From Saccostrea echinata (lineage: Eukaryota): DNA of 64,000 bases. The stretch covers positions 10,230,001 through 10,294,000 of the forward strand of contig NW_026889763.1 of the NCBI RefSeq assembly GCF_033153115.1. The letters run 5' to 3'. The notes below the pieces were generated by a model. It was not told the DNA's origin, ran no database searches, and saw only the letters and a program-made list of their open reading frames with translations. Positions 50,821 to 52,035 of this stretch are shown here, one piece after another; the stretch's first letter is position 1; each line of letters begins with the position of its first letter. The position numbers were made by a program, and so were the translations under genes.

Positions 50821-52035
50821 ATACCCGAACTATTCCGAACACCAACGAGAAAGCTTTAGACAATTACACGAGTTAAGGCTTTGTCTATTCAGGCGATACG
50901 GGTAAATAGTTCGTCACTTCTTGCCATATATGAGATATTTAGTAATATTATGGCAATTTTAACTTATTCCAAAGATATTATGTATTTGTTACTATTGTGA
51001 GGTATTATAACTTAGATCTCGTATAAATATATAAGCTTGGTCATAAGGCGTAAGAACAACCGTGTCTGTGTGTCTGCTAGTCAAGAGGATCCTCCCAGGG
51101 TGATAATGTGCGTGCTCCGTTAAGTGTTGTCTGCCTTTAATGTCGAAATAGGACTGCAGATGGCGCTCTGAGGATGTCTAAGTGATGTCGTCATTTTTTA
51201 TTCACAGCGGAATTTTATGTCGCATAAAAACTGGTTTGCTAAGATTTTTTTCTCTGTGATGAGACAATGTTCAGTTCAAGTGAAAGGGTGTGATATATAT
51301 ATGCGTGTGTTTATAATATTGCAATTACTTTGGACTGTTACAAATAGAATTCATGATAAACTTTATATCATTGACAATAATGAGATAAGGGTAAAAGCTT
51401 CGCTACATTCATGGATATTTTAATATAGGGTAAACTTATATGAATAATTGCTGAATTACTGTAGCCTAGGCAACGATCACCATATTTTTGTACAGCATTC
51501 TTAGTACTTATGGTTTACAATATAAATCTGCTGAACGGAATGGAAATTGTGTGAATAGATTTAAATACATAAAATACCTCAGAACTCCTCTTCCATTGTA
51601 CAAATATGTGTGATGCATAAGCTTTTTGTACGGTTTTTATCATAACTCCGTCTCAGGGTTATAGTTTGCCACATCATCATATAGATATGTTTACGCCCTA
51701 ACCTTATTCAGAAGTATCTTTTTGTTAAACGATTGATAGGAACACAGTATCTATAGACAACATGATGAACCATCTCAGATGTTGCATTTTCAGTTTGCAA
51801 ACATCTAAAGCATGGATTTTCATGAATTGCTGCCAAAATATTTGAGAAAGTTGCAATAGAAGTTCCCCTGTTTTTGTGTTGTGATGTGCTGTTCTAACGA
51901 GACTGTTATATGAATCAGAGAGATTTTTTCCTATATGTTTGTTGACGTTTAGTTGTCTTACATTGATAAAACAAGTACTGCCAATGTCAGTGGTGCATTT
52001 CAGATGTAATAAAATTTGTAAAGAGTATATCCAAG
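50821..52035 (+). other. Lox4: Putative Lox4 3' UTR ending near poly(A) signal AATAAA at 52008-52013
   Basis: AATAAA followed by GT-rich GTTGTT about 1.2 kb after the stop codon. The true 3' end cannot be proven without RNA data. Confidence 0.5.

Follow-up and report, generated by a model that had tools for sequence, protein, structure and literature searches.

The 3′ tail of the oyster Lox4 gene contains sites for microRNAs of the mir-10 family, which exceed chance on the sense strand only, are present in three mollusc Lox4 tails and are accompanied by a mir-10-family hairpin next to the gene. We consider it probable that mir-10-family Hox microRNAs, i.e., both arms of mir-1991 together with mir-10a, damp Lox4 in more posterior-expressing cells through these predicted sites. 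The window analyzed here is the whole 64-kb stretch of oyster DNA containing the gene. A previous sequence-only reading had pointed to a triad of let-7-complex sites (miR-100, let-7, miR-125) in this tail. Its miR-100 and miR-125 sites, however, overlap sites for mir-10 paralogues that had been missed, and the latter are the conserved signal.

Lox4 and its neighbouring mir-10a hairpin

Lox4, which we take to be a Ubx/abd-A-type gene, is arranged in the window together with the hairpin as follows.

40029-40097, + strand: mir-10-family hairpin, orthologue of cgi-miR-10a; 5p arm at 40035-40057; same strand as Lox4 and 4.9 kb upstream of it
44983-45526, + strand: Lox4 coding exon 1, ending in the YPWM hexapeptide
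50528-50820, + strand: Lox4 coding exon 2 with the homeodomain; stop codon TAA at 50818-50820; splice joint in 4/4 runs
50821-52151, + strand: Lox4 3′ UTR, minimum extent (at least 1331 nt) based on contigs
52008, 52365 and 52754, + strand: AATAAA signals of the Lox4 tail

The homeodomain encoded by exon 2 (Pfam Homeodomain, E 6e-22) has Lox4-type residues, not the Lox2-type (QTYTR), in agreement with Nucula lox4. It agrees also with the Lox4 row and not the Lox2 row of Alitta (PMC5322547 supplement). The protein is identical to Saccostrea cucullata XP_062606714.1 at 274/278 positions, to the Magallana gigas protein at 262/276 and to Nucula lox4 at 168/256. From these whole-protein identities to named bivalve Hox genes we assigned the gene to Lox4, which conflicts with the automatic UniRef name of the Pacific oyster orthologue, LOX2.

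In all four RNA runs examined, out of 20, Lox4 contigs were joined across the GT..AG intron, and in three of the four they started at 44908-44912. Their 3′ ends lay at 52151, 51956, 51740 (plus 51759-52040) and 52067. Because spliced contigs reach at least 51740, all three let-7-complex words lie inside the 3′ UTR of the Lox4 mRNA. Both the gene name and the location given by the sequence-only reading were right.

The hairpin upstream of Lox4 scored 34.9 bits against Rfam RF00104 (E 1.2e-4), which is under the gathering score of 47.5, and the Rfam search of the window at the gathering threshold accordingly returned no match. It folds with a z of -3.3, none of 200 shuffles folding as well, and its 5p arm equals cgi-miR-10a-5p in 23/23 letters when compared by eye. 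The hairpin is probably Mir-10-P5. Lying 5′ of Lox4 on the same strand, it has the hairpin-target geometry of Hox-embedded microRNA circuits. Judging from the gene order, we take the region upstream of Lox4 to be the posterior side of the Hox cluster. The hairpin of mir-1991 was not found within the 64-kb window; its position between Post2 and Post1 is common to oyster, Lottia and Capitella, and in C. gigas it is on another scaffold (PMC4138081).

Several repetitive elements were also seen in the window. A GC-rich, internally repetitive inverted repeat of ~570 nt (21631-22196), with weak and probably spurious matches to plant microRNAs, is likely a foldback or satellite element. An inverted duplicate pair of 700 nt, 84% alike (7554-8254 and 15026-15732), and dispersed repeats of 250-350 nt in at least six copies (~8815, 11005, 13950, 18880, 19920 and 61270) are probably non-autonomous transposons. 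A tandem repeat region with offsets of 112 and 170 nt, 93% alike, spans 37876-38305.

Sites for mir-1991 and mir-10a in mollusc Lox4 tails

The Pacific oyster mature microRNAs (PMC4138081 supplement) served as reference. Among them are miR-10b, miR-10a and miR-1991, three mir-10 paralogues of the Hox type whose 5′ ends are staggered (PMC4138081), and we infer that the window oyster has the same mir-1991. The following sites were located in the Lox4 tail, where organism C denotes a close relative.

50844-50851, + strand: miR-1991-3p 8mer (AACGAGAA)
50897-50906, + strand: miR-100 8mer (50897-50904) overlapping a miR-1991-5p 7mer-A1 (GGGTAAA, 50900-50906)
51096-51101, + strand: miR-10b (canonical miR-10) 6mer CAGGGT
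51388-51395, + strand: miR-1991-5p 8mer and miR-10a 7mer-A1 (AGGGTAAA), copy 1; kept in organism C, where the A run is longer by one A
51427-51434, + strand: miR-1991-5p 8mer and miR-10a 7mer-A1 (AGGGTAAA), copy 2; unchanged in organism C
51575-51581, + strand: let-7 7mer-A1; unchanged in organism C
51646-51659, + strand: miR-125 7mer-m8 (51652-51658) in a CTCCG..AGGGT frame; also a miR-10b 6mer
51896-51902, + strand: miR-1991-3p 7mer-m8 (AACGAGA)

Nine other Lox4 loci were obtained from one metagenome scan. A search with the Lox4 pattern gave no match in the genome-contig and viral-contig collections. The tails of the nine loci were searched downstream of the stop codon, so that counts are not bounded by known UTR ends, and two of the nine loci are short (348 and 744 nt). 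Diagnostic residues identify L002 and L003 as bivalve-type loci, nearest to Potamilus and Nucula; the remaining seven we read from their residues as annelid-type. The tails of the distant loci do not align to the oyster Lox4 tail; L002 and L003 share one alignable block and may be one lineage.

Ranking all 5-mers, we found AGGGT at the top in the Lox4 UTR of the window, with 5 copies where 0.69 are expected, as well as in L003, with 7 where 0.75 are expected; L002 has 2 copies vs. 0.70 expected (rank 83, not significant). The ratio of sense to antisense copies is 5:0 in the window, 7:0 in L003 and 2:0 in L002. The GGGT excess in the oyster tail had been noted before L003 was obtained. The same ranking revealed ACGAG-type words in all three mollusc tails, the miR-1991-3p word having been spotted post hoc in L002 and L003.

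Counting sites of at least 7 nt, miR-1991-3p has 2 in the window, 3 in L002 and 4 in L003, against 0.08-0.12 expected, and these counts were reached in 9/3000, 0/3000 and 0/3000 shuffles. The corresponding numbers for miR-1991-5p are 3, 1 and 1, against ~0.1 expected, reached in 2/3000, 272/3000 and 484/3000 shuffles. At least one 8mer for each mir-1991 arm is present in every one of the three mollusc tails (window, L002 and L003). When all 16,384 seeds were ranked over these tails, miR-1991-3p came 2nd, miR-10a 12th and miR-1991-5p 18th; miR-125 was at rank 109, miR-100 at 1285 and let-7 at 1880. The three tails have 169 seeds in common, and the top 24 come from only two word families, which match miR-1991-3p and miR-1991-5p/miR-10a.

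Nearly all of these sites in L002 and L003 lie between the stop codon and the first AATAAA, with one past it, and none was found upstream of the exon or antisense. The 5-kb intron and the 5-kb downstream region of the oyster gene hold 0-2 such sites per seed. The miR-10b-3p seed is not enriched and has 0 sites in the window.

Pairing beyond the seed was recognized in both bivalve-type loci. A site in L002 complements miR-1991-5p at nt 2-8 and 11-19, and one in L003 at nt 2-9 and 14-19. One 3p site per locus extends its pairing to nt 14-21 or 14-20 of miR-1991-3p; the target loop there is short, the offset being -3 to -4. Composite patterns of seed plus 3′ pairing for each arm matched 2/9 loci, exactly L002 and L003, and 0-1/5000 shuffles; they were defined after the sites had been seen, with added bases that are dictated by miR-1991, unlike miR-10a/b. 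The strict 3′ pairing pattern is absent from all oyster miR-1991 sites, and for four of these five sites the predicted accessibility is poor (5th-26th percentile).

The miR-1991-5p site of L002, at positions 3542-3557 (+ strand), is a near-full-length complement (nt 2-8 and 11-19) that recalls miR-196 on Hoxb8. An antisense mir-10-like hairpin was considered as the source of the paired 5p/3p words and rejected, as the words stand in the wrong order, at distances of 160 and 440 nt.

The CTCCG..AGGGT frame around the miR-125 site is similar to the L002 and L003 sites for miR-1991-5p, except that nt 3 of the seed is mismatched. This pattern, set post hoc, has a single match on both strands of the 64 kb and occurred in 2/5000 UTR shuffles. 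Together with the overlap at the miR-100 site, the resemblance suggests that two of the three let-7-complex sites may derive from, or double as, Hox-microRNA sites.

Among the annelid-type loci, miR-1991-3p sites were found in 0/7 and miR-1991-5p sites in 3/7, anywhere downstream. One annelid-type locus, L005, has five GGGTAA words 64-2456 nt past the stop codon, over 2.8 kb (1/1000 shuffles); three of the five are miR-1991-5p sites of at least 7 nt, located beyond the first AATAAA. These words may mark a long annelid Lox4 tail that is targeted by the 5p arm; the locus was left out of the support counts.

The let-7-complex sites and rival explanations

The words named by the sequence-only reading are present where it had placed them, TACGGGTA at 50897-50904, TACCTCA at 51575-51581 and GTCTCAGGG at 51650-51658. 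Their site classes also held against the oyster mature microRNAs: an 8mer for miR-100, a 7mer-A1 for let-7 and a match to nt 2-10 of miR-125, which gives 9 contiguous pairs and is classed as a 7mer-m8 (51652-51658) without A1. By eye, ATACA directly 5′ of the let-7 site offers possible pairing to let-7 nt 14-18. Predicted accessibility is high for the miR-100 site (90th percentile) and the let-7 site (97th). The three microRNAs are clustered in the Pacific oyster (PMC4138081), as had been assumed.

When the 1331-nt tail was shuffled 20,000 times with its dinucleotides preserved, a site of at least 7 nt appeared with a frequency of 3.9% for miR-100, 6.2% for let-7 and 4.5% for miR-125, and the full triad appeared in 3/20,000. 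Trinucleotide shuffles yielded it in 3/10,000 and tetranucleotide shuffles in 22/10,000; as the triad is still rare at higher order, the GGGT excess alone does not account for it. With control seeds of matched expectation the product was 1.7e-4, and among 96 tiles of the window, both strands, one had all three sites. The Pacific oyster has 20 microRNA clusters (PMC4138081), and after a rough post hoc correction the triad is expected in ~0.3% of cases per UTR. The triad was picked post hoc, and at this frequency a large scan will meet such cases repeatedly. The argument that the CpG-containing word is rare proved weak, since CpG depletion is mild here (observed/expected 0.75 in the UTR and 0.82 in the window).

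Additional words illustrate the background of the tail. TGAGGTA, on the sense strand within 50994-51030, equals the first seven letters of let-7 and gives an antisense let-7 match at 51004, probably by chance. TCTTGCCA (~50920) and AGCTTTA (~50853), both on the + strand and presumably seed matches of miR-31 and of the Brd-box (miR-79/9-3p type), show how many other seeds match the Lox4 tail.

Organism C differs from the window at 41/616 letters between 51075 and 51690, plus 7 indels; 37 of the 41 differences were listed, those outside this list probably being at the ends. At fourfold sites of Lox4 exon 1, 15/71 differ. The divergence of 6.7% in the tail vs. 21% at fourfold sites indicates constraint over the entire Lox4 tail. 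Of the triad, the two comparable sites, those for let-7 and miR-125, are unchanged in organism C, as are three AGGGT words, and altogether 5/5 sites compared are kept. Random words of equal lengths would be kept with a frequency of 28% for the two sites and 5% for all five, and conservation in this relative therefore lends weak support. An A is added in the A run adjoining the miR-100 site of organism C (among the 40 of 132 differences listed).

The longest block without change in the stretch compared, 54 nt at 51226-51279 (+ strand), contains CTGTGAT. TGTGAT has 4 copies in the Lox4 tail vs. 1.0 expected, and we take CTGTGAT/TGTGAT to be a K-box/miR-2 family match.

Beyond close relatives, the triad was found in 0/9 other Lox4 loci, which speaks against its conservation. 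Before the first AATAAA, a let-7 or miR-100 site is present in 0/2 bivalve-type loci and a miR-125 site in 1/2: all three are missing from L002, and L003 has one miR-125 7mer-A1. A miR-100 7mer of L002 lies at +2293, beyond two AATAAA signals. In an annelid-type locus, L008, a let-7 8mer, a miR-125 7mer and a miR-10 8mer were rejected as UTR sites, two being coding and one intronic; the let-7 8mer overlaps the miR-125 7mer in coding sequence, and a let-7 7mer at +1559 is the sole match in the true tail. L008 has an extra intron directly after the homeodomain (950-1818, + strand; KKE / RQQIK), which the paralogue-like L006 lacks.

Both layers could be real, such that oysters added single let-7-complex sites which modestly lower Lox4 in late larvae and adults. 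We rate this reading, which is compatible with the Hox-microRNA explanation, at somewhat less than even. It gains from the rarity of the triad under all nulls tried, the 9 contiguous miR-125 pairs, the possible let-7 3′ pairing and the high juvenile levels of 386,000 RPM for let-7, 13,000 for miR-125 and 6,600 for miR-100 (PMC4138081), and loses from the post hoc choice among ~20 clusters and many UTRs, the 28% chance of survival in organism C and equally strong chance matches elsewhere, e.g., the overlapping let-7 and miR-125 words in the coding sequence of L008.

One site per microRNA is expected to tune and not to silence its target. We find it unlikely that Lox4 is chiefly regulated by the let-7 complex and is switched off by it in time, at metamorphosis. 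The part of the sequence-only reading that stood is a rare triad, located in the mRNA, two sites of which are kept in a relative; the accessible miR-100 and let-7 sites speak for it as well, as do three clustered microRNAs that rise from the umbo stage and are very abundant late (PMC4138081). Set against this are the seed ranks of 109-1880 across the mollusc tails, the single site each compared with 6+4 in chinmo and the timing, as the three microRNAs show no step from pediveliger to spat (0.8x, 1.4x and 2.2x) and their main rise, of 10x, 5x and 7x, follows settlement, from spat to juvenile (PMC4138081). The absence of the triad from 9/9 other loci, together with one site per microRNA, leaves the developmental shut-down unsupported. 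An oyster Lox4 expression time course was not located in the literature.

The AGGGT and ACGAG words might instead be motifs of RNA-binding proteins or DNA enhancer sites in the last exon. Many AGGGT words are indeed matches of only 5-6 nt, 5/7 in L003 being short of a 7mer, and the Lox4 UTR is generally constrained; yet the strand asymmetry of AGGGT, the match of two unrelated words to two arms of one hairpin and flanks that pair with the 3′ half of miR-1991 but not with that of miR-10a/b make this very unlikely. That the whole pattern, the mir-1991 signal with it, arose by chance and post hoc selection appears most improbable, for although 13.6% of all 16,384 possible seeds have a site of at least 7 nt in the Lox4 UTR, only three mollusc tails were compared and the composite patterns were set after the sites had been seen, two families lead alone among all ranked seeds, AGGGT was noted ahead of L003 and 0/2000-3000 shuffles matched L002 (3p word) and L003 (both words).

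Posterior Hox microRNAs and known systems

According to the preferred explanation by mir-10-family Hox microRNAs, mir-1991 would be made where the Post genes are on and mir-10a beside Lox4. Both mir-1991 arms and the 5p arm of mir-10a would be loaded, Argonaute would bind the predicted miR-1991/miR-10a sites, and Lox4 output would be lowered by way of six canonical sites, which lie at five places of the tail. The effect would be a modest sharpening of the posterior limit of Lox4 or a clearing of its mRNA, in the sense of posterior prevalence. The let-7-complex triad would then be a younger layer on a mir-10-family scaffold, with the miR-100 and miR-125 words as variants of mir-10-family sites, and the single let-7 site would bring about partial tuning at most.

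The Pacific oyster data give the following setting (PMC4138081). Expression of mir-1991 tracks that of Post1 (r 0.81); its two arms have similar yields and fixed 5′ ends (2192/2249 and 2812/2861 reads), as has miR-10a (212,166/212,888 reads among the rows listed for C. gigas). Trochophores have 600-900 RPM of miR-10a, 80-96 of miR-100 and 150-190 of miR-125 (PMC4138081), a stage with nine of the ten oyster Hox genes switched on (PMC5048140), and miR-10a reaches 4,500-6,600 RPM from umbo to spat (PMC4138081). In whole animals miR-1991 is scarce, with at most 36 RPM (5p) and 65 RPM (3p) in larvae; it peaks in D-larvae and adductor muscle, the latter with 74 RPM of 5p and 61 of 3p (PMC4138081). 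To matter, it must therefore be concentrated in few cells. In Dreissena larvae, the Lox4 and Post2 domains adjoin at the posterior shell field (PMC7878502), an adjacency that by analogy fits posterior damping without testing it. Conserved miR-10 sites in the tails of fly Hox genes made no major difference in embryos (PMC3290615), a result that counts against the preferred explanation. Platynereis has lost Mir-10-P6 (PMC12257675), which, judging by low gill expression (PMC7488030), may be miR-1991.

Posterior Hox-cluster microRNAs arose independently in vertebrates, arthropods and lophotrochozoans (PMC3394115, PMC12257675); those embedded in the vertebrate and fly clusters lie 5′ of their Hox targets and reinforce the posterior clearing of anterior programmes (PMC3394115). 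In the literature, we located targets of posterior Hox microRNAs only for vertebrates and arthropods. It is possible, though less likely than not, that molluscs evolved a third independent posterior Hox microRNA circuit from seed-shifted mir-10 duplicates, in which both mir-1991 arms repress Lox4, the same target class as for miR-196 and iab-4/8, and that in oysters ancestral miR-1991 sites were re-tuned into miR-125 and miR-100 sites, one tail integrating position through the Hox microRNAs and age through the let-7 complex.

We located no report of Lox4 being targeted by mir-1991, miR-10a or the let-7 complex in the literature searched, which was mostly non-subscription and whose supplementary target tables may hold such a prediction. 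CGI_10026565, named Lox5 (PMC5322547), is a predicted target of Mir-10-P5 (PMC7488030), and six supplements of PMC7488030 gave 0 matches for the Lox4 gene CGI_10026562.

As mollusc Lox4 tails have sites for the two arms of mir-1991, it becomes directly testable whether the third posterior Hox microRNA case converged on the same logic. Lox4 is a first concrete candidate target for mir-1991, of which position and co-expression have been described until now, in a phylum with unusually re-wired Hox patterning. Taken by itself, the let-7-complex triad would amount to a modest observation at the level of oysters.

Among the closest known systems is that of miR-196, which represses Hoxb8 and other Hox4-8 genes in vertebrates, where a microRNA among posterior Hox genes likewise has sites in the mRNA of a central-class Hox gene located 3′ of it (PMC3394115). 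The miR-1991-5p site of L002, pairing at nt 2-8 and 11-19, also shares long complementarity with this system. Unlike miR-196, which is a separate family, mir-1991 is a seed-shifted mir-10 duplicate with sites for both arms, has no slicing-grade match and is known here from predicted sites.

In arthropods, miR-iab-4/iab-8, which repress Ubx and abd-A, similarly have multiple sites in a central Hox gene's tail, with seven in that of Ubx (PMC3394115), and more than one mature product of a locus converges on the target. The iab-4/8 products come from opposite DNA strands and have unrelated sequences, whereas here they would be the two arms of one hairpin plus an adjacent paralogue. The repression of anterior Hox genes by miR-10 involves the same family with its core ACCC; unlike in the predicted Cgi-Mir-10-P5/Lox5 pair, the target here would be Lox4 and the leading seeds are those of mir-1991. 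Drosophila chinmo resembles the oyster gene in having sites for co-transcribed let-7-complex microRNAs in the tail of a developmental transcription factor, but it has 6+4 of them (PMC4979967), while Lox4 has one per microRNA.
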